Below are positions 29,592 to 60,374 of a stretch of DNA of 64,000 nucleotides, piece after piece. The translations under genes were made by a program, and so were the position numbers. Within the stretch, counting starts at the first letter, position 1, and every line of letters starts with the position of its first letter. Below the pieces are notes generated by a model. The model searched no databases. It saw nothing but the letters and a program-made list of their open reading frames with translations, and was not told the origin of the DNA. Source of the stretch: an uncultured bacterium (GTDB lineage Bacteria > Omnitrophota > Omnitrophia > Omnitrophales > Aquincolibacteriaceae); the NCBI GenBank assembly GCA_964410905.1, contig CAYPIR010000007.1:11773-75772 (forward strand), given 5' to 3'.

Positions 29592-31247
29592 ATGAAAAAT
29601 AAACTGCAAAACATAATTAATCAAGCTGCCGCCTTTTTTTGCAAAAATAACGGAGCCGAACTTCCTGATAATTTTTCCTACGATTTACATCCGCCAAAAG
29701 ATAATCAACACGGCGATTTTGCTTCCAATGTCGCTTTTAAACTTACGAAAATTGTCCGACAAAAAACCACGGATATTGCTACCGCCATTATTACTGAAAT
29801 TAATAAAATTTCTGACGATAACCCGATAGAAAAAACAGAAATTGCCGGTGGCGGTTTCATAAATTTTTATTTAAAAAAAGAAAATTTGGCTTCAGTGCTG
29901 CTTGAAATTCATAAAAAAGATCGCGACTATGGGCGAGTAGATTTTGGAAAAGGACAAAAAGTAATTTTGGAATTTGTGAGTGCCAATCCCACGGGACCGC
30001 TTACTATCGCGCACGGACGGCAAGCGGCTGTTGGGGACTGTTTAGCTCGAATTCTAAAATTTACGGGGCATGAAGTTTACGCCGAATATTATTTGAACGA
30101 TGCCGGCCGGCAAATGAAAATGTTGGCGCAAAGCGTTTGGGTTAGATATAACGAGCTTTTGGGAAATCAAAAACCTTTTCCCGAAGACGGCTATCACGGA
30201 GCGTATATTCAAACGATTGCCCGTGAAATTATTGAAAAAGAAAAAAAAGAATTGCTCGAAAACGACGAGGCGGAATCTATAGCGTATTGCGAGACTTACG
30301 CGATAGATTATCTTATGAATTCCATACGAGAAGACTTGGCGAAAATGGAAGTTCATTTTGACAACTATTTTAGCGAGAAAACTCTTTACGCGAAAAATGC
30401 TGTCGAAACCACGCTCGGCGTATTAAAAGAAAAAGGTTATTTGTTTGAAAGCGAAAGCGCGCTGTGGTTTCGTTCTACAGATTTTGGCGACGATAAAGAC
30501 CGTGTGGTGAAAAAATCTACTGGAGAATACACTTATCTTGCGCCTGACATTGCCTATCATTTAACCAAATATGAGCGAGGATACAACACGCTCGTTAATT
30601 TTTGGGGGCCAGACCATCACGGTTATATTCCTCGTTTAAAAGCCGCGTGCAGAGTTCTGGGTTATCCTGATGAGGCGATTCATATCGGAATCGTTCAACT
30701 TACGACTCTTTTTAGAAAAGGTCAGCCTGTCAGGATGTCTACCCGCGCTGGTGAATTTGTAACTCTTCGTGAACTTTATGAAGAAGTCGGCGTGGACGCC
30801 ACCCGTTTCTTTTTTATTATGCGGCGCCAGGAGAGCCATCTTGATTTCGACTTAGATTTAGCAAAAGAAAAATCTCAGGAAAATCCCGTTTTTTATCTTC
30901 AGTATGCCCACGCGAGAATAGCCAGTCTTTTGAAATATTCCGAACAAAAAGTAACAGCGGATGTCGATTTAAAACTTTTGTCAACGCCGGAAGAAGCGAC
31001 TCTTTTAGGAAGTCTTGGGCAATTTTCTAATTATTTAATTCAAGCAAGCCGAGAAATAGAGCCTTATCGTTTGGCGGATTATCTCAGGCAAGTCGCCGCG
31101 GATTTTCATAAGTTTTATGCGCGTAATCGCGTGGTGAGTGAAGATAAAGAACTCACGAAGTCGCGGCTTTTGCTTGCCGATGCGACACGTATTGTTTTGC
31201 GAAATGGATTAGAATTACTTGGTATATCTCAACCTGAATCAATGTAG
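29592..31247 (+). CDS. argS: Arginine--tRNA ligase. The start is taken at ATG 29592, after the rsfS stop.
   Basis: HIGH-region SANPTGPLTIAHGR and the class-I ArgS layout with a DALR anticodon-binding C-terminus. Confidence 0.88.
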   Translation: MKNKLQNIINQAAAFFCKNNGAELPDNFSYDLHPPKDNQHGDFASNVAFKLTKIVRQKTTDIATAIITEINKISDDNPIEKTEIAGGGFINFYLKKENLASVLLEIHKKDRDYGRVDFGKGQKVILEFVSANPTGPLTIAHGRQAAVGDCLARILKFTGHEVYAEYYLNDAGRQMKMLAQSVWVRYNELLGNQKPFPEDGYHGAYIQTIAREIIEKEKKELLENDEAESIAYCETYAIDYLMNSIREDLAKMEVHFDNYFSEKTLYAKNAVETTLGVLKEKGYLFESESALWFRSTDFGDDKDRVVKKSTGEYTYLAPDIAYHLTKYERGYNTLVNFWGPDHHGYIPRLKAACRVLGYPDEAIHIGIVQLTTLFRKGQPVRMSTRAGEFVTLRELYEEVGVDATRFFFIMRRQESHLDFDLDLAKEKSQENPVFYLQYAHARIASLLKYSEQKVTADVDLKLLSTPEEATLLGSLGQFSNYLIQASREIEPYRLADYLRQVAADFHKFYARNRVVSEDKELTKSRLLLADATRIVLRNGLELLGISQPESM

Positions 31248-48000: not shown

Positions 48001-51000
48001 TCTTGTTGAATTTGGCGTGTCGGCAATTATTCACGATTCTAATGTTGCGGCTGCTGAAAAATTTCATACTAAATGGATAGAAATTGAAAAAATTAAAAGC
48101 GTCCAAGCAAAATTAAAAGATAATAAAACATGGAAAGATATTGCCCGCGACATTAAGTATCTCAGCCAAGAAATTGAACAACGTTTGAAAACTGTTAAGG
48201 ACGCGGAAGAGTTGTATCGCATCGAAGGCGGAATTGGCCGTCAATTCGGCTACGACGACGCGCCTAATGATGTTGTCTTTGTCTATATGAATGAACTTTT
48301 GGCGTATAAGGCCGCAGTGGATTCATATATGTCGGCGGTTCAACGCGCCAACAGTTTCTTAATTGAACAAGGCATAAAAGTTGATGATACTCAAACTTCG
48401 CCGTCTTCCGCTAAAGTTAAAGATATGATTCCAGCTTGGATTAGCGACAAAATATCTTTCTTCGATACGGGCGTCGAGGAGAAATATGAGGCAGGTAATG
48501 GCTTAAATGTTGATTTGTCTACAGCGAAGGTAAGTGCCAACACAGAGTTGATAATTGATACGCGGGTAGATGAATCTGAAAATGCTCGGGTTGAAACGCT
48601 TTATCCAGACATTTCTGGAGCTACCGCGGAGCTTTTGAAGGCTATGGGATTGGCGCCGCTTGATGGAAACGCAAATAGCGAAGAGAAGGCTGACAGAGAA
48701 GACTTGCAAATTATTGCTCAAAATATTTTAGGTCGCGTTGCGGCTAACTATGGCAAAAAAGATGCGAATGCTTGGGTCGCCGAAATCACTGAAACTTATA
48801 ACAAACTTTCTGAAAATAAGTTTTGGGATAAATCGGAATTTGCGTCTCAAAACCACCGCACTTTGGGCGAGGAAGTTTTTGGAAACCTTTTCCGCGCCGC
48901 GTTTTTTGAAACAGGGAGAGTTAATAAACTTTTGCGTAACGCGAATATCGATTTGGATAAACTTGCATTCGCGGCATTTTTGGCAAGCTTAGATGGTGCC
49001 TCTGCTACTCGTCTTTCGCCAGATGAGCGCGCGGCGTTTAGGGACGCAATCCTTCGTGATTTGCCAGCGGCGCGAAAAGCTCTTCAAGAAGACAAAAAGA
49101 ATAAAACGGGAGTTTTTCGTTGGGACGCTGTCCAATTTTCAGAAATATTGTCTTTAGCAATTTTTCACGTGAGTGATACTGAAGCTAAAAAAATGTCTTT
49201 TGAAGATATTCTTAAAAATGATGAATATAGACGCGATATTTTTGAGATTTCTCCGGAAATCAATTTTAACAATGTCTCTAACGCGATTTTGGGTTTTAAT
49301 CGCGGAGATGACTCTCGCACAACAGGTTGGGAAGAATTGGCGGCATTTTTGGCAATCGCGCAAGGGAAATACGATCCCAATACTAAAACGGTGTCTCGTA
49401 AAATACTCGATGTCGCAAATCCTGAAACTATGGCAAATGTTTTGGCGGAGGTGGGGATTGCCAAAGCGAAAGATGACACAACCGCTTATTTGATTGCGCG
49501 CATGAGACATAATTTGGAAAAATTTACAAATCTTGATCCAACTAAAGATGAGCTTGGCGAGACGACTTATAATCGGTTGGTGAAGCTTGTTGAAGATGAG
49601 GCGAATGACTTGCTTGATAAAGCGGGCGTAAGCAAAGATGATATTAAAAGACGACGTGACACGGTCGAGAAAATGCAAATTGAGGCGTTGCGTTTTGCTA
49701 AAGCGGCGGCGTATGTAAACAATATTTTATATGGAACGGGATTTGAAGCGGGGATAGACAGAAACGAATGGCTCGCGAAATCTCTTGATGAACGCGTTTC
49801 GTTGACCGAAAAAAATATGGAAGTATCAAACGGGCTAATTTCAAGAGGCATAAAGAACCATATCGGAATGGATAAATCTTTGACCCCTCGCGAACAAAAA
49901 CAGGCCGAAGCGATTGTGAACGGTCTTATATCCAGCATGGCGTTTGAAATTATGGGCGAGACTGGAAAAGATATTGGAAGAGAAGGTATCAAGAGAATAG
50001 AGGAATTAAAAAAAGAAGCCAAAGAGCTTGAAAAGAAGATCAAAGAAAAGACCCTTTCGTCTAGCGCAACTACGGCAACGTCTTCTGTGTCTACAGCAAC
50101 GGAAGATGGTTCTGTTGAGACCTCAACCTTGCCAACAACATCGGTCACTGAAAGTTCTTCTGATGTTGATGCCTTGATGGCTCGGCTTGAGCAAGTCCGG
50201 GAAAAAATTAGTGATTTTGAAAAAAATCGCGCTAAAGCAAGAGCGGATTATGAGACATTTAGGAACCTTCCTTCCGCAGACCGCGAAACGCGCTTGATAG
50301 AGTTGCAAAAAGAAATGAATGCAATTCAACCGCGTGTGGAAAAAATGCTTGGCCGAAAATTAAATCTTGGCGAAGCCGCGGACATTGCAATCCTTCGAGC
50401 TCAGGCGGAAATGATTTTGGGTGATGTCCAATCTAAATTTATGGAAGGCGGAGCATTTGGTGATGATGAAGAGGCTTGGGATGAATGGCGCGAACTAACC
50501 GTTGAAAAACGCAGACAGATTTTCACAAAAGAACTTGATTCTGCGGCGAAGCTAAAGTCTGAGCTGCAGGGGATAGGCGTTTCTTTTAACCTTTCAGATA
50601 GGGATGAAGCTGGTAATAAAATGCCAGTCGAAGAACGTGGGGAAGATTTGGGTGTTTTGCTTTCTTTAGCAAAATCGGTTTTGTCTGACAAATTATCGAA
50701 TATTGGAACCGTTTTTACAAAAGATGGAGAAATTGTTCAAGGGAAAGAAGGTTTGGCTTGGGCGATTTTGACTGCGACAAGAGATGCTGATGTTCAAAAG
50801 GCAGCTGATGAATTTTTGAATAAAACATATCCGCGGTACAACACCTTAACACCCGTTGAAAAAAGAGGCCGGATTTTCTCTGCCATCGAAGAAACATTGG
50901 CGGATCATGCTACGAGTAAGGAATTAAGCGATTTGGACAGAGAAAAGTCTGAACTTGCGGATTTGATTAAATCTAAATTGCTTGGCAGAGTCGCGTTGTA

Positions 51001-54000
51001 TGAGAAAACTGGTTCTGCAACCGTTTTTGACAGAAAAAGTTTTGATGAGTTGAAAGAGGCTACGACTGTTACCGATTTAACTGAAACAACTTGGAAAAAC
51101 TTACTTTATTCGATTTCTAACTTGCCTAAAAAATCCACAGACACTGTTATTGCTCAAGTTGAGCATTTTGGAAGAGTTGATTTAGCTAAAAACCTGTCTT
51201 TTGGAGATAAGCTAAATCAAAAACCAGATTTCTGGTTAAGCGATAGTGAAAGAACTCGCTTGATTAGAGAATTTAAAACTCTTTCTGATCGAAATAAATC
51301 AAGTGCTGATGTGCTTGCGTGGGCAACCGAACTTTTAAAAATGTCTCTTTTTAATGGTAAAACTGTTGCTGATGTCAATCGATATGCTGAAGAAATGGAA
51401 GAAGTTAGAAACTTTTTGCAAGCGGCGTATAAATTGTATTCCGGGGCAGATTTGCCTTTGGGCGATCTTTCAGCATTTGCAAATGATGTCATAACTGCGG
51501 AAATGGATGTCAGACAGGAACAAGAAAGAAACAATGCGCGTTTAGGGCGGAAATTGACTGAAGCTGAAAAATTGTCCCAGCAACTAGAAGTTTTTGCTGT
51601 TAGATACCGTTATGGACATAAGCTCAAACTTTACGGCTTGGCTGAAGCGGCTTATGAGGGGAGAGAAGTTGCGAGTAATCCATACAAAAATAAAAACGAT
51701 CGAGTTTCTCAAATAATTTATTGGCTAAATTATTTTGGAAAAATCAATCAAGGCGATAAGTGGCAGGAGGTAAATGCTGACTGGGTTCGTCAACATCATA
51801 ATGGTTGGAGCAAACAGCAAATAGTTGGGAAAATTGAGCGGATTTTAGCGGAGCAATATGAAGGAGCTCCGCTTTTTGAACTCACCCCGGAAAGTGCTGT
51901 GAACCAACTTTATCAAGATGTTCAAGATGAGGCGATAATGGATTCAGTTATTTATATAACTCAAAAACATTTTCTCTCTAATGAAAAACTCTCAGCGCTT
52001 GTTTTCGCGGAGCGTGAAGGTAAAGAATCTATACCGCATTTCAAAATCACAAACAACGTTATGACATATGCGTATGACGTTGTCCCATTTTTACATTCGC
52101 TAGAAGACGGTGCGTGGAACGTTTCTGGGGGGTACGCAAACTATTTATTGCTTAAATATGCGACTCAACAAATTTGGGATCCGGATCTCCGTGCATTAGA
52201 AAAACCGGTTCAGGTGAATGGAAAAGATTTGGTTGTGTCTGTTAATGGCATAGATACTCCCGTAAATTTATCAGACTTAAATAATGTCTGGACAAGTTAT
52301 TTGTCTGTTTTTCGATCAGTTAGCATTCTTCAGGAACCAATTAATGAGATGGATTCAAATAAAGTTCTTTCATCGCTTTGGTTTGTTCAACAAATTAAGC
52401 AGCTTGAATCGGATTTGAAAGCTAAAGAAGCGGCAGGTGAAGAAATTGCGGTTGCTGTGAACGAGTTTATGACAGGCGTGAAGCGAGCGGAATCTGTTTT
52501 TTATCAATTTTCAAAAGATGAAGATAAGAAAAAAGATTTCATCAATAATTGGGCTAAAGACTTCTTGGTTGACCGCGAACGCCGCGCGGGGCAAAAATTT
52601 GAGAGGTATGATTTGGTTAAAATTGATGCCGAAATTAAGCACGGAAGAAAAGAGAATGCTAATAAATATGCCGCCGATGCTTTGGAAAAACATAGTCAAG
52701 AAGGTATCCGCAACGCTGCTTTTATTAGGCCTATGGTTGAGATAGTAAAAAAAGAGGCGAAACGCGGCTTTGAATATGAAATTGGAAAAGAGGATGCGAA
52801 AATTATTGCTGAGAAAATGGTTGATGAGGGCTGGGCGGCTCGTGAATTGTTACTTTTAGAGAAGGTTATTGTTCCTGCCCTTACTGAAGGCAGCTCTCTG
52901 ACTATAGAAGTACGCGGAGATATTTATAATGTAGCAGAAATTCTTTTGCAAAAAACAGAATCGGAAGAGCTTTTGAAATTGAGAGGAAGTAATCCGAAGG
53001 CGACAATTGAAAATATTTCGCTTCAAACTCTTAAAGCATCAATTGAAAAGCGTATTGAATTATATAAAAAAGTTATTGATCTTAAAAAGATTATTACGGA
53101 ACAATTTGTAAAATTTCAGGTTTATAGCAATGATGAGAAAATGTTTAAAAATGAAATTGTTAGAATTTCGACTGATGCTATTGAAAGAGGATTTCAAACA
53201 GAATCTCTCAGGCGTTGGTTTGAAACTGCGGAAACGCTTAACATGCTCAATCCTAAAGTTGATATATTGCAGACATTGTTTGTGGCTGACGGGCTTTTGC
53301 AATTAGGCCTTGCGACTCAGCCTCGTGAAAAAATAATTGAAAAGCATACAGATGCTGAAATCGCTGAAAAAATAAATGAAACCTTGGGCTGGATTTTTGC
53401 TGTGAGCGACAATACGCAACCGATGTATTCGTTGGGCGGAAAAAGCAGAACCGATTACGAAAATGAACTTACGCTTGAAAAATATATAAAAAATTATGAT
53501 TCCAAAACCCGCCAACAAATCAAAGAGGATTTGTATGCGCGAGTTACCTCGATGATTAAAAACGGTTCGCTAAGTTTTGCTGATTTGGAAAATCTGAAAA
53601 AATTAACAATTGAAAGAGTGGCGTTTTTAGTGAAAGGTGATACGGAGAGAAAATCAGACACCTTTTCAGCATATGATTTGCCTCAACCGCATCAAGTTGC
53701 GCCGCTTACTATTTTGTCGGTTTTAGATAACAGTGCAGGTGAGCCTTCTAAGCGGATTGGAATTTTAAATATTATTTTTTCTTCGCACAGAGGAGAAGTA
53801 AAAGGGGCGTCTTGGCTAAGATTTAACGACTTTAGAGATCCTTCTCGTCTTTCTGAGCAAGTAGCGGGGCAAACTGGCGCGATGGTTCGTCGTGAATTTG
53901 TTAAACTTGTTGATATTTACGATCCTGTAGATGCAGGGTTTCAATCTTGGTTTGGCAAGAATTTTCAAAAAATAAGCGAAGCTAGCGGATTTAGCAAAAA

Positions 54001-57000
54001 CTCAAAAGGTGAAGAGTCTTTGGCGAAAATTGTTCGTGGCGCGCTTATTGTCGGCACTGCTTTTTCGCTGTATGGTTTATTGGCGACGCTTATTAGGGGA
54101 AGAGTTTTTGCTGCACCTAAGTTATCAGGTTATTCAAAAGCAGAGAATGATAAGTCAAAACGTGGGGGGGCTGGAACTTCTGGTGACGCTGGTGCGAGCG
54201 GTGCCGGCGGTGATGGAGAAGGGAAAAAGCCTGTTTGGAAACAGGACCAGTCTGATAAAAATATTAAATTAATCAAAACTGGCGCGATTTTAGGTGTTGT
54301 CAGAATTTATCTCTTTAAATTTTTGCAATACTCTGCTGTTGCTGGACTTCTGCTTTTGGGGTTGGCAGTTATGCCGGCGACCGTTGGAACTTTTTCAATT
54401 TTATTTCAAATTATGTATTTGCTTATTCATTGGCAATTATTTGAACAAGCGATGTATGCATTTTTGGCATATGCATTTAGTTGGACAAGAGTATTTGCCG
54501 TTGTAGGTGTTTTGGGATCCATTTTTGTTGGAATTAGTTTTGCGCTAGGTTTGCCATGGTTGTCGGCTTTTGGAGCGATTTTAATGGCAAATCCTATTAC
54601 GGTGAGTTTGATACTAGTTTGGGTTGGTTTTTTTGCACTTGTTATGTTCTTAGGCTCTTCTAGGATGCCTTCGTCTGGCGTTCATTGGGCAAGTTTCGAT
54701 AAGTATATTAAAAACGCTCAAGATATAGAGCGGCTCTTTAGACCTGAACTTAATGATGAAAGAACTAAATTGGCGGAAGAAATGAAAGCCCAGATGGATA
54801 AAGTTGGTAAAGCGACTGACGAAACGGATAAAACTGAAGCCCAAAATAAACTAAAGGAACTTATTAGCAAGTTTAAAGAGATTACTCCATCGTTAGATAT
54901 GAATGATTTTCTCGGAGAAAACGAGAGAATTGATGCCGATCAATATGTTACAGACTTCGCACAGTCAAAACCAAATTTATCAGTTGATGAATTAGACGGA
55001 TTAATGTTGGCGCAAATCTTGACTTTAGCTTACAATAATTTTAAGCAAAAAAAATCTATTATATATTTTATGGACGACCTGATTTTGCAATATGTTAAAG
55101 CGGAAAATAGCGTGTCGGCAGAAATTACAGGAGATGAACGAACGCAGGCTGTAAAAGAAAAACTTAGAGAAATAATTAGTGCGGTCGTTAAGGGGGATAA
55201 GGCGTTTAAGAATAAGTCGGAAGAAGATCAAAAAAAGGTAATAGAAGCGCGTTTTAAACAAATTACGTCTTGGGTTGAAAGGATTAAAATTTGGCAAAAA
55301 ATGGCAGATGATGTTTTGACTTATGAAAACGGTGCGGAGAAGATAAATGGCAGCGATCGTCTCATAGTGTCTTTTTCTGGCGCAGGAGGTATGAGAAAAC
55401 CGGTAGGGAATGTTTTAGGGATTAACCAATTTACGGGTTATGGCGAAGATGGAACGCCGGGAAAATATTGGGGACAAATATCTAATGGAGGTGAGTTAGA
55501 TCCTGCAATGCTTGCTTGGCAGCCTTCTCATGATGGAAAACGTTTGCATGTTTATGGCCCAATGTATATTACGGACGTGCTGTTAAAGGCCGCAAAAGGT
55601 CAAACTCTTTCTGGTGTCGAAAAAAGTTTTATTGAAGAAGTTAAACTAGCAAAAGGACTTACTGACGAAGATTTGACGAAAATTGTCCCCGTTACAACAC
55701 ATGATAATGAACCGTTCTTTACAGGGGTTATGAAGGCGGATGGTTTTGTTGCTTATGATAGCTATGTTGCGCACGAAAGACCTGAAAACGATAAGACGGG
55801 ACTTGCGGTATTGCTACCGAAGAAATCAGATTCTGGAGAAATGATACCGCGAGTTATTTATTCGACAACTCTTGACTCAGGAAACTTTGTCAATGTTGGA
55901 ATGGATCTTTTGATGTATAAAGCGATGATCGAAAGACCTGATGCTGGAATGTTTCAAATGAACACTGGATATGTAACAGATAAATCAGACGTTCATTATG
56001 AAGAAAAAATAATATCACATCAATCTGGATTTGGGACGCAAATTTCTAACGGAAAAATTGCTGGGCAAATACGTGCGTTCGGTAAATATTCAATCAGAAC
56101 GGGTTTTGGGCGCGAATTTGGTCGTCCGCGTCCGGGCGTTCCAATGGGTTCGTATTTTTCACGCGTTATGCTTTATAGCGGAATCTTGCCTGAAATTGTA
56201 GAGACTTTCAGTGAAACAGAAACGAATATGAATATGGATGACTACAGAAAAGCCGTTTATGGAAAAATGAACGGCGGAGGCGGCTGGGTTGTTATAGTTA
56301 ACGGAGAAGACGAAATTGTAACCAATACTGCATCTGATATGTATGTTATCGCAAAGGCTATTTCTGATGAAAATGTTCTAAAACGATTGAGAGAAAAGGA
56401 TAATGTCTTGGGGCGAATGTATTTTGGACTAAAAACGCCGGTTATAGATGATGCCGCTGTTGAGCTTTTGGAGCCTGATATTTGGGAAAATCTTGCTAAG
56501 GGCGGAAATCCAATGCCTATGGGCAAGCCAGTTCTTTTAATGTGTAAAGACCGTGCGGGTATTATTGATGATACGGATTTTAATATGATTGCGGAAGACG
56601 GCAAGGCTGCAAAGTGGGGAATTATAAATGATGAAATTACGGATATTTTTAGAAATCGAGGCGGATTTGCCTTGACACCTCAGACGCGATTTTTTAACGA
56701 TCTCCCTAAAATTTCCTTGACCGTTGAAAAAAAATGGATGCAATCACTTTTGTGGTGGGCTGCTATGGGGTGCGTTCCGGGTCTCGGCGGGATTACCGGA
56801 GTTCTTGGTGCGTTGCTCTTGACAGCGATTGTGTTAGGGACGTTGATGTCTGCGCCGTTTATTGGAATTTTGCAATATTATTGGGCAAAGACAGTCAATG
56901 TTGTTAAGGAGCCGGGTAAGGCATTTAAAACGTATATTTTGGAGCCGATAGTTGATATTTTGGGAATGTTTGGAGAAAAATTTGGCAATAGCGGTCCTGA

Positions 57001-59689
57001 ATATGTTTCAAGTGCGCTTAAGCAGATACCTGTAATTATCATTGAGTTGCTTCAAATAATAAGCGGATCTGTATTGTTTAATTTTATTTATAATTTAGGC
57101 TCTTTGTCCTCTTCTAAGAGCAAATGGCGTAAATTTTTTGATAAAGTTGAACCTTTAAAACATGGACTAATTGGACTTTTTATTAAAACCCCTGTTCAAA
57201 AACGTGAAATGGATTTTGAACGTGAAAGGCTTGTTGCCCCGGCTCCTCCGGCGGGTATCCCAGAACAAAAAACGAAAGCCTATAAAGACTATTTGGATAA
57301 CCAAACAACAAGACATGGTCTTGCTTTAGGTTATTCCTTTTTGATTTTGTTTTTGACTCAACTGGGAATAGCGATACCTTTTTGGAGTATTGTTCTTCCT
57401 GTTGTCTACTTTACCATGATTTTGCCGGGTTTTTATGGAAGTAAAATTCATAGTGAGTTTGCACGAACTGTTATTTCAAAAGATGGTTATGATGTAAGCA
57501 AAGAAAGATTTAAACCATCGGAGGAAAATGTGGAGCACAATTATCGATACTTTGCTGAAAAATATAGGGCTTATGCAAATCATGTTATTTTTTCATCGTT
57601 ATTGGTTGTGCTTGTTGGATTTTTTGCTTCCGACCTTGCGTTGTTTTTAAATCCTGCATTTGTCTTTTTATCAACTATTTTGGCGTTGTATGGTTTTGGC
57701 CGTCCTTTTGTGTCGCAATGGACTGGAACAATATTTAAGACTAGAGCTGTTGCGCGGACGGCTTTGGCTGTGGAAGGGACGCTTATAATAGTGCTTTTCT
57801 TGAGTGCTATTTACATACCTTTGTTTAATGTTATTTTTCAAAAAATATTTGGTATGGCTTTGGCTAAATCGGCATTTTTGGGCGGGTCGGGATATTTTAT
57901 GGAAGGTATGAAGGGTTTCTTTGGGCTTGCTTCTGCTGGTTTTAGCCATTGGTGGATGGCGATACAATCTGCTTCTTTGTTGGGAACTTTGAGTGCTATA
58001 GGCTTGGGCGTTATCTCATCTGTTGCAAGATTTTTAGGATTTGAATATTCCGAAGATGCTGGGAGAGAAACGTGGAGTAAAAGGCTAACAGGAAATTGGG
58101 AAAAACTTTTTAAAGCGATAAAAGGTCCTTGGAGTAAAAAAACCAGAGCGCAGTTTTGGAAAAATTTTAAAGATAATTTGATTATGTATTTTAAAGCATT
58201 TGGTGCTACTGTAGGCAATAGTCGGGCGAGGAGTTTTAAGAAAATAGACGGTAAAAAGATTGAAAAGAAAACTCCTCCAACACCTATAGCGCCAGCGCCC
58301 TCGGCGGGAGAGCCTATTGCTGTGCCAGCTGAGCAAACGGAAACTCCAACGTCTGCGGAAACACCTGCTGTGCCAGCAGAGCAAACGAATACTCAGGCAG
58401 AGCCTAAACGAACAACAACTATGCAACCAACTCCAACGCCTGCGCCGATGGAAGAAAAAGCCGAACCGGCTTATGCACCTGCTCCAGCTACATCCGAAGA
58501 CGCAGAGACTACATCGACTAAATTAGAAACGCCAATTTCTCTAACCCCTGCACCAGTTGCTCCAGAAGCCCCCGAGGAGACATCGTCGGATGAGGCTGTT
58601 CAGTCGCCGGATTTGATGAATCCATTAACTCTCCCAGAAGCTTCTTTCGGAACAGATCGAAGGATTTTGACTAGATTAAATAATGCTAGATATAAAGTTG
58701 AAGCGACTACGGGCAGCAATGCCGAGATATATGGAGCCGGTGGGAGTTTTGTTGGAGTTAGGTCTAAAATTATCGCTGGCGGTAATTCTACTTTGACCTT
58801 CAGTATTGGAAATCCGTTGTCAAAGCCGCAATACTCGGTTGCGTTAGAACTCGGGTATGTTTATTTGCGACAGGAATTGACTCTTTCAGTGATTTTTACT
58901 GATGAGGGTGGTGAGACTTATTCTCGCGATATTAAAACAACAGCCTCAGCGGGAGAACGCATTTATACGTTTGAGCCTACTTTGAAGAATGTCGCATCGA
59001 TTACAATTGTTAACAAAACCGAAGGTGATTCAGCTTATGCTATCAGATTCGCCGGTGGAATTGCTGGTAATGCGCGAAGTGAATTGAGAGAAACTAAATC
59101 AGCACGTGAAAAAGAGCTTGAGCGTGCGCTTAATTCGACTCGTGCTATGGATTTGGAAATCAAATATAATGAAATTTTGTCTTTGGCAAAAGCTGATGAG
59201 ATCGAACGCTCGCTGACCGGTTGGGCGACTAACGAAAAGATTCTTGTTTCGCTGGGCTTACCGTCAACTTTTATTAGAACGAACAATATAAAGATTTTCG
59301 ATGGATTTAACACGGAAAAGTTGGAAGCGTATTTATCGAGCGCTAGTAGAGATGTGCGGGTTATAGTTGCTAACGCCAGCCTTGAAGATGTGGAGATTGC
59401 TAATGCCATATTCGCAAAGTTTGGCATTCCTAAGGGCTATGGCGTGGCAACATCTGATTCTGTTGAGACAGTTATGACTAAACGCGCTTTGAATGTTGCG
59501 AACGCAATTCAAATTAGGGATACGGCTTCGCTCCCTGCGGGTGTTTACGCCAAGTTGCTGGCAGAGATACCGGGCTTGGTGGTTGTGTCAGACAATAATG
59601 TGGGAATTGCAAGCGCGAATCAAATTAGCGCCGTAGAAGTTATTGTCGCCGCGTTCGAGGCTCAACAAGCGGTTGCGATCGCTGCGTAA
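36035..59689 (+). CDS. Giant 7,884-aa multidomain envelope protein. It contains an N-terminal signal/TM segment, a SecA-like ATPase core and three multi-TM clusters. It also has a ~4,000-aa alpha-helical region with TolC/OEP-like segments, a Pro/Thr-rich linker and a beta-rich C-terminal domain.
   Basis: 23,655 nt with no in-frame stop. All overlapping antisense ORFs are short. A rho-independent terminator follows at 59726-59757. The domain evidence is given in the sub-features. Confidence 0.85.
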   Translation: MINAQTGKLKSWIRTIAFFTVFIFTFTSVVWDGGINKAYAAAAQPRLDSRVSTTVLTSIIDRSDLPETYGTIKNSYRGAGDQVFIHVQDAHINEEAQLNIANILKWFSEKHQMRLVNIEGAEGELNAKTLTAISDKAARKDVSGYFLREGRMAGADYFAIVDKPELTLYGAEDNELYEENRKAYVNALEFKDKDEKVLSSLRSIMEKVGRFIFSDEARELYRRRVDFQDGGAQLVAYVRYLVSIAEKNQMDLSAYSGMKSLLQLVDLEKKVNFDKAESEVDRLVEHLKKTLQSDKLSRFLTNTVHFRMKRMNRADYYSYLQSEIDGLIDAETVKTQYLNAIAYIEYMKLYDLIGIAIFDEIEFLERTIKAKILTTPEAQKLDQLYRVWDIMQKMFDFSLTKQDAEYFYSNQTAFSSNNFVEFLTPLMKEHRFSDSIPANASILDTDLSKVEKFYQLALERDIVIIERAIEKTMRSGQKVSAIVTGGFHTPGIEAALKEKGFSYLVVTPRISKSIDQKKESKLYDEALRQTPLPIEKVLSETLTLQSGTVNDPRFQLSAKHFLDVPEMVDQAATLMAAKSILNAVAEGKSPAARLEELRRTAADANSPKLMKILNSFEVGTINGKQVPVYPNINGTYLAFFSETTKPSEVSPKYRSSIQNLKLSDDSFLSMRVVAPEQISGISRSETRQLTDGTSALKLDAFEAEGIKVEAGKIERGVFQKELIAKSGYAGYGFVVPDLTRASDKALRDISAAFSDSKINDKLKAVSSAFSEAGVDPIAVSSQAVLRLLSENTADEIAQKVSLLRLLNRSITTSNVGYSVEKLQELAAEAQAQKQAAQETAVAELAKTKVEVPTVAGGVSAEMIEQRINAFLGKYKTRNVNGKEIENSEKVLNIMRLALRGIFADPKNSENNAAANSVFTRFEEQIKVARDITEESLNQVTMGAGKTTILQLGLQYLYDKGFKQSEGKGVVLVTANDKLSERDAEKSAAMFGGQGIIVGSVSKDESGKPIGHIYDLKTKTFKTTTAEDVYKNTDFIFGSMETFQFRAIEERKALNEKDRIFTSREFAHLLDEADAQLDNNNPAIISGGIKEDAEEIRARTIKANAFVKGIFFSGVNDGFVDVSEAKNQSRSVKLTEKGVAKLRASFPNLSESEFDLLKESVNTSLTVYFAYEEGVDYVVKTTTAATEDGKASKKVEIVLLSEGQERPGTRLQGGLHSAIEAKHMQSESDVQLEHDIEGSITVPEYLSLPHVKGWGGVSGTYDKPQMEAKYGKVVKESALKSKRGEEGAIFATEQEKTDAFLADALARHRAGHPIIIKVAEGKTAETAKQIRDYFAKNGEKVDEEAVGIFDATSRTDLKEFEATAGKKGAISVVTQIGARGVDVKVENGKTIEEMLDEAIDKVQAEITRQNLVFTGYALYIDDKEALDIQFRGRVGRANDEGLFRAFWSADDPIFNKYKELAGVQAVLADIKNALRSGKTLTSEQAFKLISTLQTAVSDQEISSWKSNKLFGEEKNARLKEFTAIREAILKGEFNSPIVQNIFPGLSEFAASLNDANKEKLRIGLLKLMDKAWSKYETKSEESRVALTRILQSGWQGVAAQKDAVESFQKVMRGVYQGIVLELQKQIAGISAESRSEAEEVIRRIDFAARWKSFGNKLLAYVYGGAVVGAVAVVIAKVMAFVSVTGKIGGGAAALASLTDTLAPVMNLLPGWAWIGIALFAAMGTFAIAQTLLKRFQQSYRGTKNIALLLSGQAVSEERASAGLSVLVQPLTMIVSITPIGVVLTGVAAIAAPALAPLLWTIAAISAVAALVAAGLIVAVNYSKHIKDAARPTDTAMGRIGRASFVGLALMTGLVTVFKPIILTGAAASFTTIFGAVAILAVIAFSGYWVMKGFDSAYGKEFAGLQHNIKLNQIGAAVGVSLAIFAGAIAFAVGSTAIALTVLMSLGSILFAAVSILQIIAAPGITKKIAEQKSAAKGERFGKRDAFGELFEFVVVNARSIILGLGGIVGLVFTATNLALPITLAYTGLAGAAATVVTAAGVTLILAVVISLVFMGIAKYRNGLLERKAKGEIFTNKIEKVFSTDSKKIVGVVLGLVGISAAMPSLAAGAQYVQQSATAEYTSVTTTSESASVTEQYLETGKTSLPQGITVSVAEKTVAQKPVTASQLEDTEKKAETPVVAAPAHDVSKDVVAPPPPREDFTITMDKTSFGPAGIAWKVSRDGTTAADNEENLIEAVRNAEKDASIASAQADLNAFIYRVVQAFDTGAQGKSEEDQKRITNAKAEFLEEATNGLAQVSENPLDLNDVVANLDALSHRLFDLAGLDRDDARIRQSIAEDQAQTRAELMEDALRLSESQAEKDAAVAVEEPVVMTEALAAAWEDYEKFKADTIENLINTEDAERLNAFNDRADELEKNVVTVEDLHLAQLELDQIATIFEDAGGDVIGEAASGAGDGAGTPPPPPTSEYGPVVPLLADMLPVTVPRPAAEGSAAGTAGAAAGAARVVADKLVQVDAKRVAKDVSVSGPVAFSKEIIRRTIAGDQLHEPMGLSVATILFAEDHQAPHVIAMAQEAENYKDYSEDYKSWGTFLTAGVRSVLTKHEETKTYKTQTIEKGERLVDIDDEYDFGLGLTELETYSYMKTNVSSVTSKVEEPFVASASAGIKTGSAEIKEDKLKKLQVEQTRLSAKHAYIEQQMDKLFHMVEIVTANRSLETIQENEKLLRELKRKQEKLSGISAEVKARSKSLDVALDGLEVAKNDIAKERDRHAAHIAYLSGRADISNSEDFMKFVNGLTFKKIEEDISGSHLPTDMARVVVQSARNYVLMRVAEQDKIAGLSWQLTTPEIGVSYGSEYGWNLRANLFTFDAQWSYRDFQKNKAKIFKSEAAAADVLSRLLDEVEKAQLDRSRIDDVRKSIEELKAQKDAQQAIVESLFSDPTGKSIRDEDSNAALVKLLKIQRLLIAAEGDAYQRNVAAQELDTVIRNVSQAINELSVKFPKVAKQLDVKAKLERLQEAARQTAKERNLELAQTADALYRKYKDLDNRVHIDAFVDGLLAGNTRIAAGQFASIARRADYVRSEYFRVFGYANAGVSVSLSDTGVKTKTTNIGLGFDIPILDWTRSSEAISKEAAQRASVLTKTDVDMRLHFQTNELLRRIANLTEERQRVEEKIANEESKSKKIEEGIEIRAKEVTDGSDLSQQSKLARQAARLSLLEAQRELAALDENRNAAVMMLRHLTDTHLDSDNVAVLSKEAELKLDDSNYVESLGKFQNPAFGFLSLDGKITQEAVPTIKKMLSVTHSLMSEMTKKLNGLKRANPNYEQKLKELEEERKSLDAEAEQLLKEKPQQKDFENKKDFNKAEKAWEAKRSSYAEKLAKNNKNKLPLSAIRDLEKTLSQFQSAERDLNELSLSPDGDQTDAVRGMLINILNASDSYVTSDYLLHKFFTLGAYDSRDAFYEEIRTLLGIIADKTAVRGIVGRIAANEEAFVKIEEAWNVLKSPLTISLGATFQATWGGNSGTSVSGSFGGVLSHLFYAPASYLGLTSDTRNQIAGELLREGARNVLKTAEAHQKEDVAVRNVQKRIGVLSSRVKLYERLRDEFTKMQTEVARKNKTMGFANLVRKLFLNNRVSEENLNLKVLEYQIRIEKDQASIDALKDELRDTLNNTSEVEGSAGFQEGAAEFAVTEQSIKNQLEELGAQSPEQRLATLDSIVSANTANLSIGGGARFSNAISSAGSSFNRDLGVFYQKLDADSGTPGASGNRYFAMNIDVLSFAGNRSETFALLMVHDESERGTLSREKQAQIQAQALELLRAVYHARVANNVYREISKSAIGIHALERVLNLSRAENAMKAMAASALGNVREIEALETVSSQIARLMAELGLADSDSALKNKEFLSRLNGLVAAAGDDITAESEKLTKLAAELGVNFDLIEGLDLSKTILEENKLTPATYRALLREEIARQFVKTLKNSRFQFTARGGFRQPTRVSDFSAAEPLVEFGVSAIIHDSNVAAAEKFHTKWIEIEKIKSVQAKLKDNKTWKDIARDIKYLSQEIEQRLKTVKDAEELYRIEGGIGRQFGYDDAPNDVVFVYMNELLAYKAAVDSYMSAVQRANSFLIEQGIKVDDTQTSPSSAKVKDMIPAWISDKISFFDTGVEEKYEAGNGLNVDLSTAKVSANTELIIDTRVDESENARVETLYPDISGATAELLKAMGLAPLDGNANSEEKADREDLQIIAQNILGRVAANYGKKDANAWVAEITETYNKLSENKFWDKSEFASQNHRTLGEEVFGNLFRAAFFETGRVNKLLRNANIDLDKLAFAAFLASLDGASATRLSPDERAAFRDAILRDLPAARKALQEDKKNKTGVFRWDAVQFSEILSLAIFHVSDTEAKKMSFEDILKNDEYRRDIFEISPEINFNNVSNAILGFNRGDDSRTTGWEELAAFLAIAQGKYDPNTKTVSRKILDVANPETMANVLAEVGIAKAKDDTTAYLIARMRHNLEKFTNLDPTKDELGETTYNRLVKLVEDEANDLLDKAGVSKDDIKRRRDTVEKMQIEALRFAKAAAYVNNILYGTGFEAGIDRNEWLAKSLDERVSLTEKNMEVSNGLISRGIKNHIGMDKSLTPREQKQAEAIVNGLISSMAFEIMGETGKDIGREGIKRIEELKKEAKELEKKIKEKTLSSSATTATSSVSTATEDGSVETSTLPTTSVTESSSDVDALMARLEQVREKISDFEKNRAKARADYETFRNLPSADRETRLIELQKEMNAIQPRVEKMLGRKLNLGEAADIAILRAQAEMILGDVQSKFMEGGAFGDDEEAWDEWRELTVEKRRQIFTKELDSAAKLKSELQGIGVSFNLSDRDEAGNKMPVEERGEDLGVLLSLAKSVLSDKLSNIGTVFTKDGEIVQGKEGLAWAILTATRDADVQKAADEFLNKTYPRYNTLTPVEKRGRIFSAIEETLADHATSKELSDLDREKSELADLIKSKLLGRVALYEKTGSATVFDRKSFDELKEATTVTDLTETTWKNLLYSISNLPKKSTDTVIAQVEHFGRVDLAKNLSFGDKLNQKPDFWLSDSERTRLIREFKTLSDRNKSSADVLAWATELLKMSLFNGKTVADVNRYAEEMEEVRNFLQAAYKLYSGADLPLGDLSAFANDVITAEMDVRQEQERNNARLGRKLTEAEKLSQQLEVFAVRYRYGHKLKLYGLAEAAYEGREVASNPYKNKNDRVSQIIYWLNYFGKINQGDKWQEVNADWVRQHHNGWSKQQIVGKIERILAEQYEGAPLFELTPESAVNQLYQDVQDEAIMDSVIYITQKHFLSNEKLSALVFAEREGKESIPHFKITNNVMTYAYDVVPFLHSLEDGAWNVSGGYANYLLLKYATQQIWDPDLRALEKPVQVNGKDLVVSVNGIDTPVNLSDLNNVWTSYLSVFRSVSILQEPINEMDSNKVLSSLWFVQQIKQLESDLKAKEAAGEEIAVAVNEFMTGVKRAESVFYQFSKDEDKKKDFINNWAKDFLVDRERRAGQKFERYDLVKIDAEIKHGRKENANKYAADALEKHSQEGIRNAAFIRPMVEIVKKEAKRGFEYEIGKEDAKIIAEKMVDEGWAARELLLLEKVIVPALTEGSSLTIEVRGDIYNVAEILLQKTESEELLKLRGSNPKATIENISLQTLKASIEKRIELYKKVIDLKKIITEQFVKFQVYSNDEKMFKNEIVRISTDAIERGFQTESLRRWFETAETLNMLNPKVDILQTLFVADGLLQLGLATQPREKIIEKHTDAEIAEKINETLGWIFAVSDNTQPMYSLGGKSRTDYENELTLEKYIKNYDSKTRQQIKEDLYARVTSMIKNGSLSFADLENLKKLTIERVAFLVKGDTERKSDTFSAYDLPQPHQVAPLTILSVLDNSAGEPSKRIGILNIIFSSHRGEVKGASWLRFNDFRDPSRLSEQVAGQTGAMVRREFVKLVDIYDPVDAGFQSWFGKNFQKISEASGFSKNSKGEESLAKIVRGALIVGTAFSLYGLLATLIRGRVFAAPKLSGYSKAENDKSKRGGAGTSGDAGASGAGGDGEGKKPVWKQDQSDKNIKLIKTGAILGVVRIYLFKFLQYSAVAGLLLLGLAVMPATVGTFSILFQIMYLLIHWQLFEQAMYAFLAYAFSWTRVFAVVGVLGSIFVGISFALGLPWLSAFGAILMANPITVSLILVWVGFFALVMFLGSSRMPSSGVHWASFDKYIKNAQDIERLFRPELNDERTKLAEEMKAQMDKVGKATDETDKTEAQNKLKELISKFKEITPSLDMNDFLGENERIDADQYVTDFAQSKPNLSVDELDGLMLAQILTLAYNNFKQKKSIIYFMDDLILQYVKAENSVSAEITGDERTQAVKEKLREIISAVVKGDKAFKNKSEEDQKKVIEARFKQITSWVERIKIWQKMADDVLTYENGAEKINGSDRLIVSFSGAGGMRKPVGNVLGINQFTGYGEDGTPGKYWGQISNGGELDPAMLAWQPSHDGKRLHVYGPMYITDVLLKAAKGQTLSGVEKSFIEEVKLAKGLTDEDLTKIVPVTTHDNEPFFTGVMKADGFVAYDSYVAHERPENDKTGLAVLLPKKSDSGEMIPRVIYSTTLDSGNFVNVGMDLLMYKAMIERPDAGMFQMNTGYVTDKSDVHYEEKIISHQSGFGTQISNGKIAGQIRAFGKYSIRTGFGREFGRPRPGVPMGSYFSRVMLYSGILPEIVETFSETETNMNMDDYRKAVYGKMNGGGGWVVIVNGEDEIVTNTASDMYVIAKAISDENVLKRLREKDNVLGRMYFGLKTPVIDDAAVELLEPDIWENLAKGGNPMPMGKPVLLMCKDRAGIIDDTDFNMIAEDGKAAKWGIINDEITDIFRNRGGFALTPQTRFFNDLPKISLTVEKKWMQSLLWWAAMGCVPGLGGITGVLGALLLTAIVLGTLMSAPFIGILQYYWAKTVNVVKEPGKAFKTYILEPIVDILGMFGEKFGNSGPEYVSSALKQIPVIIIELLQIISGSVLFNFIYNLGSLSSSKSKWRKFFDKVEPLKHGLIGLFIKTPVQKREMDFERERLVAPAPPAGIPEQKTKAYKDYLDNQTTRHGLALGYSFLILFLTQLGIAIPFWSIVLPVVYFTMILPGFYGSKIHSEFARTVISKDGYDVSKERFKPSEENVEHNYRYFAEKYRAYANHVIFSSLLVVLVGFFASDLALFLNPAFVFLSTILALYGFGRPFVSQWTGTIFKTRAVARTALAVEGTLIIVLFLSAIYIPLFNVIFQKIFGMALAKSAFLGGSGYFMEGMKGFFGLASAGFSHWWMAIQSASLLGTLSAIGLGVISSVARFLGFEYSEDAGRETWSKRLTGNWEKLFKAIKGPWSKKTRAQFWKNFKDNLIMYFKAFGATVGNSRARSFKKIDGKKIEKKTPPTPIAPAPSAGEPIAVPAEQTETPTSAETPAVPAEQTNTQAEPKRTTTMQPTPTPAPMEEKAEPAYAPAPATSEDAETTSTKLETPISLTPAPVAPEAPEETSSDEAVQSPDLMNPLTLPEASFGTDRRILTRLNNARYKVEATTGSNAEIYGAGGSFVGVRSKIIAGGNSTLTFSIGNPLSKPQYSVALELGYVYLRQELTLSVIFTDEGGETYSRDIKTTASAGERIYTFEPTLKNVASITIVNKTEGDSAYAIRFAGGIAGNARSELRETKSAREKELERALNSTRAMDLEIKYNEILSLAKADEIERSLTGWATNEKILVSLGLPSTFIRTNNIKIFDGFNTEKLEAYLSSASRDVRVIVANASLEDVEIANAIFAKFGIPKGYGVATSDSVETVMTKRALNVANAIQIRDTASLPAGVYAKLLAEIPGLVVVSDNNVGIASANQISAVEVIVAAFEAQQAVAIAA
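38600..40960 (+). other. SecA-like translocase ATPase core (NBD1, PPXD-like insert, NBD2, helical scaffold) embedded in the giant protein.
   Basis: MGAGKTT (SecA: MRTGEGKT). KGVVLVTANDKLSERDAE (SecA: KGVHVVTVNDYLAQRDAE). LLDEADAQLDNNNPAIISG (SecA: [21 protein letters not shown]). EEGVDYVVK...GQERPGTRLQGGLHSAIEAKH (SecA PPXD: [40 protein letters not shown]). TQIGARGVDVK (SecA: TNMAGRGTDI). GRVGRANDEGLFRAFWSADDPIF (SecA: [23 protein letters not shown]). GWQGVAAQKDAVESF (SecA HSD: GYAQKDPKQEY). Confidence 0.8.
41000..42370 (+). other. Polytopic membrane domain (about 10-12 predicted TM helices) immediately C-terminal to the SecA-like core.
   Basis: A continuous run of 18-25-residue hydrophobic segments rich in A/G/V/I/L, separated by short polar loops. 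Confidence 0.6.
44550..46950 (+). other. Alpha-helical region with TolC/OEP-like (outer-membrane-factor-like) repeat segments. Tentative.
   Basis: Gly/Ser/aromatic strand-like segments (GVSYGSEYGWNLRANLFTFDAQWSYRDF; GLGFDIPILDWTRS; TFQATWGGNSGTSVSGSFGGV). Each is followed by long helices with OEP-like text such as GSDLSQQSKLARQAARLSLLEAQRELAALDENRNAAV. Confidence 0.3.
54020..54670 (+). other. Second multi-TM cluster (~6 helices), preceded by a Gly-rich acidic loop.
   Basis: Hydrophobic helices LIVGTAFSLYGLLATLI, AILGVVRIYLFKFLQYSAVAGLLLLGLAV, VFAVVGVLGSIFVGISFALGL and others. Confidence 0.55.
55350..56720 (+). other. Unassigned ~450-aa globular Gly-rich, non-helical domain between TM clusters 2 and 3.
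   Basis: Composition shifts sharply from coiled-coil to a G/P/aromatic-rich sequence (FSGAGGMRKP..., GFGREFGRPRPGVPMGSYF..., NGGGGWVVIVNGEDE...). I recognise no family signature. Confidence 0.4.
56735..58050 (+). other. Third multi-TM cluster (~10 helices).
   Basis: WMQSLLWWAAMGCVPGLGGITGVLGALLLTAIVLGTLM ... through SASLLGTLSAIGLGVISSVARFLGF. Confidence 0.55.
58265..58630 (+). repeat. Low-complexity Pro/Thr/Ala/Glu-rich linker with an imperfect ~27-nt direct repeat (AVPAEQTETP / AVPAEQTNTQ).
   Basis: TGCTGTGCCAGCTGAGCAAACGGAAACTCC at 58319-58348 against TGCTGTGCCAGCAGAGCAAACGAATACTCA at 58367-58396. Translation reads PTPIAPAPSAGEPIAVPAEQTETPTSAETPAVPAEQTNTQAEP... Confidence 0.6.
58650..59689 (+). 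other. Beta-rich C-terminal domain of unknown function, ending in a hydrophobic Ala/Val-rich tail.
   Basis: Alternating polar/hydrophobic strand-like pattern (TLTFSIGNPL..VALELGYVYLRQELTLSVIFTDEGGETYSRDIKTTAS..ITIVNKTEGDSAYAIRFAGG). The terminus is ...VEVIVAAFEAQQAVAIAA. Confidence 0.4.
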
Positions 59690-59757: not shown

Positions 59758-59822
59758 TTTTTTAATTCAAGATTTTGTGTATTTTTTCCGTTAATTATGC
59801 AGTCAAAAAGGGAGGAAGTTTT

Positions 59823-60035
59823 ATGATAAATCAAATGGTTGTGTCGCGAGATATTGAATGGATTGGTTATGAAAGAAAACGTAATATGCTTCAAGTTGAA
59901 TTTATTGCAGGACAAATTTATCAGTATGAAAATGTTCCGGAGCTGGTGTATGAAGATTTTTTAGTCGCGCAATCTTACGGAAAATTTTTTGAATCTAATA
60001 TTCGCAACAAATATCAAACCAAAAAAGTCCGCTGA
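59823..60035 (+). CDS. KTSC-domain protein. The start is taken at the internal ATG preceded by AAGGGAGGAAG.
   Basis: IEWIGYERKRNMLQVEFIAGQIYQYENVPELVYEDFLVAQSYGKFFESNIRNKY matches the KTSC consensus (I.A.GYD.....L.V.F..G..Y.Y..VP..VYE....A.S.G.YFN..I...Y). Confidence 0.65.
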   Translation: MINQMVVSRDIEWIGYERKRNMLQVEFIAGQIYQYENVPELVYEDFLVAQSYGKFFESNIRNKYQTKKVR

Positions 60036-60065: not shown

Positions 60066-60374
60066 CGACCCCGGGCAGATTCGAACTGCCGACCCTCTGC
60101 TTAGCATCCGACATCAAGTTGCCTTGACCGCTCAAAAAATTGAGTTTGTCGGCTGGACTTTCTCTTAGGCGTTGCAGCCTTGCCGTGTAAAGTCTCTACA
60201 CTTCCCGATGGATTGGGTAGCTCGGTGTTGTCCTCAAATCAGATTTCCGTTTTCACGGATAAATAAATCAAAGGGGATTCACCGAATTAGCGGCATTCAC
60301 TTTACGAGTTCAATTCCTCGTAAAGGCTCCATTATATAGAAGGCAGATGCTCTATCCAACTGAGCTACGGGGCC
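60066..60374 (-). tRNA. tRNA-Arg (anticodon UCU) interrupted by a 235-nt group I intron between anticodon positions 34 and 35. The mature tRNA is 74 nt.
   Basis: 5' exon (60374->60340): GGCCCCGTAGCTCAGTTGGATAGAGCATCTGCCTT. 3' exon (60104->60066): CTAAGCAGAGGGTCGGCAGTTCGAATCTGCCCGGGGTCG. The joined exons give a canonical cloverleaf: acceptor GGCCCCG/CGGGGTC, Arg-type D-loop TGGATAGAGC, anticodon stem TCTGC/GCAGA with loop CUUCUAA, T-arm GGCAGTTCGAATCTGCC. The 5' exon ends in U and the intron ends in G. Confidence 0.8.
60105..60339 (-). ncRNA. Group I self-splicing intron (IC3-like, Azoarcus/cyanobacterial tRNA-intron type).
   Basis: The P7 pairing GACUUU / AAAGUC lies inside R-like (GUGUAGAGACUUUA) and S-like (AGAGAAAGUCC) elements. 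AAUUCGGUGAAUCC resembles the Azoarcus AAUUCGGCGAAACC. GUGUAGAGACU is shared with the Azoarcus tRNA-Ile intron. 235 nt is a typical size. Confidence 0.7.

Follow-up and report, generated by a model that had tools for sequence, protein, structure and literature searches.

The number of recognised classes of bacterial tRNA introns rose from four to 21 in the survey of Williams (2020, bioRxiv 10.1101/2020.01.27.920355), and Nakagawa et al. (2026, mSystems, PMC13011429) report 333 tRNA group I introns from 18 phyla among 4,934 complete genomes. In the available part of the latter source, Table S5 lists, for tRNA-Arg(TCT), 34/35 introns from four Bacillota (three of type IC3, one IB3) and two Bacteroidota genomes, together with one further intron at 36/37, and according to the legend of Figure 6 tRNA-Arg(UCU) introns of Bacteroidota and Campylobacterota can carry PD-(D/E)XK endonuclease genes. 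The only Omnitrophota entry among those listed there is a tRNA-fMet intron at 33/34, and introns at another tRNA site are described as self-splicing in vitro. Here we describe a tRNA-Arg(UCU) gene that is split between U34 and C35 by a 235-nucleotide (nt) IC3-like group I intron, on the minus strand of a 64,000-nt stretch of contig CAYPIR010000007.1 (hereafter the window). A first-pass annotation of this DNA, made from the letters alone, had proposed the same intron and regarded an Arg host with a UCU anticodon as not established; the latter view is out of date, given the Arg(TCT) 34/35 entries in Table S5 and the 21 classes of Williams (2020). A literature search on group I introns in Omnitrophota found nothing.

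The gene and its parts are as follows.

60066..60374, minus strand: whole split tRNA-Arg(UCU) gene (exon 1, intron and exon 2), placed by ARAGORN and by a match to Escherichia coli
60340..60374, minus strand: 5′ exon, tRNA positions 1-34, last base U34 at 60340
60105..60339, minus strand: 235-nt group I intron (IC3-type) with omega-G at 60105, placed by the covariance model R1 (below) and the minimum free energy (MFE) fold
60066..60104, minus strand: 3′ exon, tRNA positions 35-73, starting CUAAGCAGA

Read from 60374 to 60066, the minus strand consists of GGCCCCGUAGCUCAGUUGGAUAGAGCAUCUGCCUU, 235 nt and CUAAGCAGAGGGUCGGCAGUUCGAAUCUGCCCGGGGUCG, 309 nt in all, and cutting out 60339..60105 after the 35th base leaves 74 nt that ARAGORN reports as tRNA-Arg(tct) with a normal cloverleaf. 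The coordinates first proposed for this removal are exact, and the word "perfect" for the cloverleaf is almost correct, G2.U71 being the sole stem pair that is not Watson–Crick. The D arm AGCUCAGUUGGAUAGAGC has A20, like E. coli tRNA-Arg(UCU); the discriminator is G at 60066, and CCA is not encoded in the 3′ exon. In a blastn search the spliced sequence, whose junction 20-mer is TCTGCCTTCTAAGCAGAGGG, matched an annotated tRNA-Arg in 5,423 of 5,426 E. coli genomes with 83% identity across the junction. The matched E. coli gene reads ACGACCUUCUAAGUCGU, has the anticodon UCU in an anticodon loop CUUCUAA (argU type) and adjoins intD. U (60340) is the last base of the 5′ exon and G (60105) that of the insert, as had been noticed at first reading, and among the registers within 5 bases on either side of the ARAGORN call U34|C35 is the only one that combines U(-1), omega-G and a tRNA. 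Thus the exons reconstitute a normal tRNA around an intron in the anticodon loop, which is the arrangement of bacterial tRNA IC3 introns, and both the host tRNA and the 34/35 site are those of the class listed in Table S5.

Relatives were collected from 185,579 species-representative genomes with the core pattern GTGTAGAGACT-N2-4-ACGG-N15-45-AGTCCA, which the Azoarcus intron presumably carries too. In shuffles of the window this pattern has an expected count of 0.00, and the scan returned at least 120 loci (retrieved loci carry labels such as L039). The matches listed come from very diverse phyla, and nearly all of them fall in the anticodon loop of a tRNA gene. Leu(UAA) is the majority host among them, accompanied by Met/Ile(CAU) at 33/34 or 36/37 and Arg(CCU), and further by Thr(UGU), Thr(GGU), Ser(UGA), Leu(CAA) and Arg(UCU). 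We aligned 65 of these bacterial tRNA introns, with the window and L039 left out (alignment A1), and RNAalifold recovered P2, P3, P4, P5, P6, P8 and P9 from them, with compensatory changes in 34 of 42 pairs. The covariance model built on this alignment, R1, was trained on introns of Leu, Met/Ile, Arg(CCU), Thr and Ser tRNAs plus one Arg(UCU) intron at 36/37 (L083), and leaves P7 and the outer P9 outside the model. R1 has a single significant match in the 64-kb window, at 60347..60097 on the minus strand (91.6 bits, E about 2e-27), and this match spans model positions 1-239 of 239. Moreover, 53 alignment columns show a conservation of at least 95% across 99 other introns, and the window matches the consensus base in 50 of them.

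Within the intron, the following elements were assigned.

60327..60342, minus strand: P1, exon CUU and intron C+1 (60342-60339) paired with the internal guide GGAG (60330-60327)
60300..60325, minus strand: P2, hairpin of CUUUACGAG (60325-60317) and CUCGUAAAG (60308-60300) with the 8-nt loop GAAUUGAA
60295-60291 with 60185-60181, minus strand: P3, UGCCG/CGGCA, from RNAalifold and a pair check
60222..60285, minus strand: P4, UCGGUG (60285-60280)/CACCGA (60227-60222), enclosing P5, P5.1 and P5a
within 60274-60232, minus strand: P5, P5.1 and P5a, the last being CCGU/ACGG with a GAAA loop (60254-60251)
60200..60221, minus strand: P6 (GCU/AGU) and P6a (CCC/GGG)
60194-60189 with 60161-60156, minus strand: P7, GACUUU (inside the conserved GUGUAGAGACU)/AAAGUC, pseudoknotted with P3
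60167..60180, minus strand: P8, a short hairpin AGGC/GCCU with the loop UGCAAC
60108..60152, minus strand: P9, CCGAC (60152-60148)/GUCGG (60112-60108), enclosing P9a and P9b

All of P1, P2, P3, P4, P5/5a, P6/6a, P7, P8 and P9/9a/9b form with standard pairs, including the guide pairing in P1, the P3/P4/P6/P7 core and the P7 helix GACUUU/AAAGUC that had been named from the letters alone. The 3′ strand of P7 follows the J8/7 segment AAGAG; P9a is CUCAA/UUGAG, and P9b is GUCAAG/CUUGAU with a GCAA loop. The hallmarks of group I introns are thus present, namely a P1 with a U.G wobble, omega-G, and a core of P3, P4, P6, P7 and P8 with the P3/P7 pseudoknot. Folded without constraints, the intron has an MFE of -71.7 kcal/mol (z = -3.6 against shuffles), and the resulting structure recovers P2, P3, P4, P5, P5a, P6a, P8, P9, P9a and P9b. 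The wobble at the splice site is U(-1).G at 60340/60329, and of 101 family members 68 have U.G and 28 have C-G as the splice-site pair. No open reading frame (ORF) of homing-endonuclease size was found within the 235 nt.

The fold is also supported by covariation. When 101 family members were aligned to R1 and the structure of the window intron was projected onto them (alignment A2), 89.7% of cells were standard pairs; shuffles gave 70.0%, and sliding the 3′ partners by 1-3 columns gave 31-42%. P3 pairs in 99.8% of cells and covaries in 5 of 5 pairs. Since P7 and the outer P9 are not part of R1, the alignment is unbiased toward them; the fifth P7 pair is A-U in 54, U-A in 31 and G-C in 15 of 100 sequences and unpaired in none, and the outer P9 is 92.6% paired with covariation in 4 of 5 pairs. 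A metagenome scan with the core variant of the window (GTGTAGAGACTTTACACGG...AGTCCAG) gave 59 loci. From our scans we assembled nine Arg(UCU) 34/35 introns (the window, the Omnitrophota locus L039, L138, L148, L152, L155, L161, L165 and L166), to which two published ones were added (alignment A3, n = 11). Among these eleven, 93.6% of cells pair, and both sides have changed in 41 of 68 pairs compared with 20.9 +/- 2.6 in shuffles. All 11 introns keep the P1 pairs C-G, U-A and U.G, and the first intron base is C or U in 10/11, pairing with the first G of the guide. In P2, compensatory changes occur in 7 of 9 pairs of the Arg(UCU) introns, and in P8 every pair that varies covaries in both the family and the Arg(UCU) alignments. 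Relative to L039 (82% identity), double compensatory changes are found in P2 (four), P3, P8 and P9 (two). This pattern bears the signature of selection on a working fold and not of a decaying insertion.

Based on the R1 match, the complete set of helices and the covariation, we propose that the 235 nt between U34 and C35 are very probably a functional, self-splicing IC3 group I intron of a tRNA-Arg(UCU) gene in an Omnitrophota bacterium. The boundaries, the family membership, every helix and its conservation via compensatory changes are directly established, while the two transesterifications, their rate and their independence of protein are inferred from known group I chemistry. The subtype label would be IC3 on the grounds of similarity to introns so labelled in the literature. 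A precursor transcript of about 309 nt would fold its intron into P1-P9 with the P3/P7 pseudoknot, and the guide GGAG (60330-60327) would pair with exon CUU and the first intron base, so that the 5′ splice site is marked by the U34.G wobble. An exogenous guanosine bound in P7 could then attack after U34, upon which omega-G (60105) would take over the same site and the free 3′-OH of U34 would attack after that G. Ligation of CCUU to CUAAG would give a mature tRNA reading AGA (and AGG) codons. One may speculate that the tRNA body helps to align the exons, as with other tRNA introns. We know of no splicing assay for the tRNA-Arg(UCU) 34/35 class. As the intron has no homing endonuclease gene, vertical inheritance or rare movement (e.g. 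reverse splicing or recombination) is the most likely history, in preference to active homing.

The closest described introns are the published Arg(UCU) 34/35 introns (e.g. GCF_000246855.1 and GCA_001586195.1), which, according to PMC13011429, share the host tRNA, the site and the IC3 label (one is IB3). They also have the same guide GGAGCC and the same P1 (CUU|C / GGAG) as the window, a similar P2, and a short P8 with a GNRA-containing loop. However, their P7/P3 core is CCGUAGAGACUA.ACGUG whereas that of the window is AGUGUAGAGACUUUACACGG, which is nearer to the Thr(UGU)-, Leu- and Lys-hosted introns with GUGUAGAGACUUUAYACGG than to these published relatives. Their hosts are Bacillota and Bacteroidota instead of Omnitrophota, some of them carry a PD-(D/E)XK homing endonuclease gene (according to that source) whereas the window intron has no ORF, and they lack its P5 extension with the GAAA loop. 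This extension is private to the window intron: the other sequences have gaps in these alignment columns, and none of L039, L138, L148, L152, L155, L161, L165 and L166 has a counterpart of the P5/P5a extension.

The closest sequence that we found is L039, from an Omnitrophota metagenome-assembled genome (MAG; JBDRDJ010000022.1), with 82% identity over 220 nt and the same site, guide, core, P8 and P9b. The tRNA bodies of the two genes differ, with an acceptor stem GCGCCUG in L039 as opposed to GGCCCCG in the window. The introns of L039 (370 nt) and L152 (310 nt) are each enlarged in the P1 loop by an insert of about 100-135 nt (L039:5745-5885). The two inserts have inverted repeats and CCTGAGCG...GTCGAAGG-like motifs in common, and they could represent a small repeat or mobile element that lies within the intron. 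GAGGC near the 5′ end of the L039 intron was considered as a guide and dropped, the conserved GGAG guide following the 135-nt P1-loop insert in the alignment. Searches with the window genes against all retrieved loci (tblastn and blastn) found no shared neighbourhood around other Arg(UCU) introns.

Among the more distant relatives, the cyanobacterial/plastid-type tRNA-Leu(UAA) intron (class Leu.3Ug of Williams 2020) occupies the same U34|N35 site with the same IC3 architecture. These introns are mostly ORF-less, measure about 200-250 nt and are the commonest host class among the genome-scan matches listed. In contrast to the GGAG of the window, their guide GAGU pairs with ACUU, and in most of them L2 is GAAA and P8 carries a CCUAAG/UAUGG receptor, features that are both absent from the window intron. 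The Azoarcus-type Ile(CAU) introns (Ile2.5Ug) and the Agrobacterium-type Arg(CCU) introns (Arg.5Ug) have the common IC3 core GUGUAGAGACU, AAUUCGGYGAA and ...AGUCCAG, and share with the window a P9 hairpin with a GNRA cap. However, they lie at 36/37, after the anticodon, and the 3′ end of the Azoarcus-type Ile intron (ACACAAACCGG) has no outer P9. Of the two motifs that the first-pass annotation had described as common with the Azoarcus tRNA-Ile intron, GUGUAGAGACU is indeed shared by the Azoarcus-type Ile(CAU) introns in our sample (though it is part of our search pattern), but the 14-mer AAUUCGGUGAAUCC is not exact: these introns have AAUUCGG[C/U]GAAACC, which agrees at 13/14 positions at best, and only 3 of 302 retrieved loci contain the exact 14-mer.

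The family is also present on predicted viral contigs of IMG/VR, at least 120 of which contain the core pattern; among the matches listed, 47 lie in tRNA-Leu(UAA) and 8 in tRNA-Arg(UCU), the latter at 34/35 in L238, L246, L249, L261, L297 and L301 and at 33/34 in L273 and L289 (all among L183-L302). The exact core variant of the window, GTGTAGAGACTTTACACGG, occurs in at least five tRNA species, namely Leu-UAA, Lys-UUU, Thr-UGU, Asn-GUU (at 35/36) and Arg-UCU, and in each of these introns (metagenome loci L121-L179) the guide is adapted to the host exon. Judged from these sequences, the spread over five tRNA species suggests past movement between anticodon loops. A second, shorter R1 match (L020:6071-6258, minus strand, 111.5 bits) was observed about 300 bases from a tRNA-Leu intron, on the opposite strand of the same MAG contig.

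Several observations weigh against a functional intron of this family. The R1 score is partly circular, because the relatives behind the model were retrieved with a 21-base pattern taken from the window intron; the paired regions and the majority of the conserved single-stranded positions fall outside this pattern. The window and L039 have the lowest scores of the 101 R1 hits, the window being lowest but one. P1 has only 4 bp, and there is essentially no P10, as no pairing of the 3′ exon with the guide was found beyond a possible single G-C pair. The low scores reflect this P1 and an otherwise divergent periphery, with a P8 that is shortened and lacks the CCUAAG..UAUGG tetraloop receptor carried by most family members, and an L2 that is not a GAAA tetraloop. 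A simple scan of 59700-60800 found no sigma-70-like promoter upstream of the gene (the minus-strand promoter and terminator hits in this region are chance matches inside the gene, the P5a hairpin being called a terminator). Finally, RF00028, which had been put forward as a check, reaches only 15.1 bits (E = 0.3) in a permissive Rfam scan of 59900-60550, below its gathering score of 50; the other permissive matches there are to miRNA families and are obvious chance hits. This weak score is not counter-evidence, because RF00028 misses or under-scores undisputed members of the family and is therefore a poor test: it gives 60.9 bits for an Arg(CCU) intron (L002), 47.4 for an Azoarcus-type tRNA-Ile intron (L115) and 38.2 for a tRNA-Leu intron (L086), so that the Ile(CAU) and Arg(CCU) introns score 47-61 bits against 15 for the window, and at E<=0.01 it has no hit to a tRNA-Thr intron (L106) or to L039. 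None of its seeds is bacterial, and a cut-off of 18-20 bits was used by Williams (2020, bioRxiv 10.1101/2020.01.27.920355).

There is a small but appreciable chance that the intron is functional and yet needs a protein or RNA chaperone, or the tRNA body, for efficient folding in the cell. The stabilising contacts of Azoarcus-type introns are altered here (no GAAA L2, no CCUAAG/UAUGG in P8), and some bacterial tRNA introns splice poorly in vitro. However, the GNRA-type loops that remain (GAAA in L5a, GCAA in L9b and GCAA within L8) could give alternative contacts, the intron encodes no protein, and self-splicing in vitro is on record for the introns at another tRNA site in PMC13011429.

It is improbable that the intron is group I by descent and now catalytically dead or impaired, with the tRNA a pseudogene and AGA decoded by another gene, even though the low rank among R1 hits, the 4-bp P1 without an obvious P10, the P8 without the typical receptor motif and the negative promoter scan would all fit. 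Against such decay, every helix is intact and 50 of the 53 near-invariant core positions are kept. The same short P8 recurs in eight further Arg(UCU) introns, and the two published ones also lack the receptor. All 10 relatives have the GGAG guide, and the differences between them and the window are mostly compensatory, which argues for purifying selection on the fold; in addition, both exons still yield a flawless tRNA.

The intron mode of ARAGORN finds both halves of the gene but shifts the intron by one base and labels the product tRNA-Ser(gct), and it labels L039 as tRNA-Ser(GCU) too. An intron at 33/34 of a tRNA-Ser(GCU) gene is nevertheless very improbable. Such an intron would end in U and not in G, and P1 puts the U.G wobble after U34 in 11/11 Arg(UCU) 34/35 introns. 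Furthermore, the variable loop of the spliced tRNA has 5 nt and no long Ser arm, which makes the Ser call untenable, and the U34|C35 product matches E. coli tRNA-Arg(UCU) across the junction. Boundary errors of this very type are documented for ARAGORN and tFind in PMC13011429. Default ARAGORN and Rfam at its gathering thresholds report only a tRNA-Ala(CGC) at 27451-27523 in the whole 64-kb window, and the early expectation that automated annotation would overlook the split gene is borne out by these misses and by the mislabelling in intron mode.

A chance likeness, or another RNA or mobile insertion such as a GIR1-like ribozyme, is suggested by the GIR1 match (18 bits, E = 0.079), which lies slightly above that of RF00028, and by the lack of any Rfam family at its gathering score, but can be practically dismissed given that 18 bits is far below the GIR1 gathering score (100 bits), that group I folds gave rise to GIR1 itself, that the R1 match is full-length (E about 2e-27) and that covariation backs the group I helices including the pseudoknot.

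An arginyl-tRNA synthetase (ArgRS) is encoded at 29472..31247, at a distance of about 29 kb from the split gene, and its best named homologues all come from MAGs of Candidatus Omnitrophota (77-78% identity). By this homology the host is inferred to be an Omnitrophota bacterium. On the plus strand, opposite to the tRNA gene, an ORF of 7,884 aa (36035..59689) ends 377 bases past the 3′ end of the tRNA gene; its Pfam matches are confined to a SecA-like ATPase region at about aa 819-1457 (SecA_DEAD, SecA_PP_bind and P-loop_SecA). A second long plus-strand ORF (1..6102, >2,033 aa) is cut by the window start, and such giant genes are consistent with an Omnitrophota host. Between the large ORF and the tRNA gene, a convergent ORF of 86 aa (59775..60035, plus strand) encodes a KTSC domain (E = 3.6e-19) and stops 31 bases short of the 3′ end of the tRNA gene. 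No functional link of the KTSC ORF or ArgRS to the split tRNA is proposed.

The Arg(UCU)-hosted introns have peripheral features in common. They lack both the CCUAAG...UAUGG receptor in P8 and the GAAA L2 (60309..60316 in the window) that most of the 65 other introns carry. Their P8 has 3-4 bp and a GNRA-containing hexaloop (UGCAAC, UGAAAU or UGAGAU), and their L2 has 8-10 nt (GAAnnnAA). These alterations of P8 and L2 may reflect a rewired tertiary contact. Tentatively, and with considerable doubt, we raise the possibility of a distinct IC3 sub-lineage that is marked by the core GUGUAGAGACUUUACACGG, has replaced the classical L2 tetraloop/P8 receptor contact, has spread to at least five tRNA species (Arg-UCU, Leu-UAA, Lys-UUU, Thr-UGU and Asn-GUU) and three sites in the anticodon loop and, in the present genome, interrupts the only AGA-reading tRNA. 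In its Arg(UCU)-hosted members the replacement may consist of the short P8 with a GNRA-containing loop and the enlarged L2. If the split gene does provide the only AGA-reading tRNA, a common Arg codon in a genome of 39% GC would depend on, and would possibly be regulated via, ribozyme activity.

The novelty of the functional intron proposed here is modest, as the Arg(UCU) 34/35 host class is known and widespread, having been catalogued by computation in 2020 and 2026, and no new category is opened. What is added is an Omnitrophota member of this class from a divergent sub-lineage, with a distinct P7/P3 core, a private P5 extension and a short P8. With standard annotation the genome would seem to have no tRNA that reads AGA, and its completeness as judged from tRNAs would come out too low; the same would hold for relatives in Omnitrophota MAGs. 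The window intron is a compact, ORF-less ribozyme of 235 nt with altered peripheral contacts, which adds Omnitrophota to the phyla with the Arg(UCU) 34/35 class, and together with its 10 same-site relatives it forms a comparative set on the adaptation of IC3 introns to new tRNA hosts.

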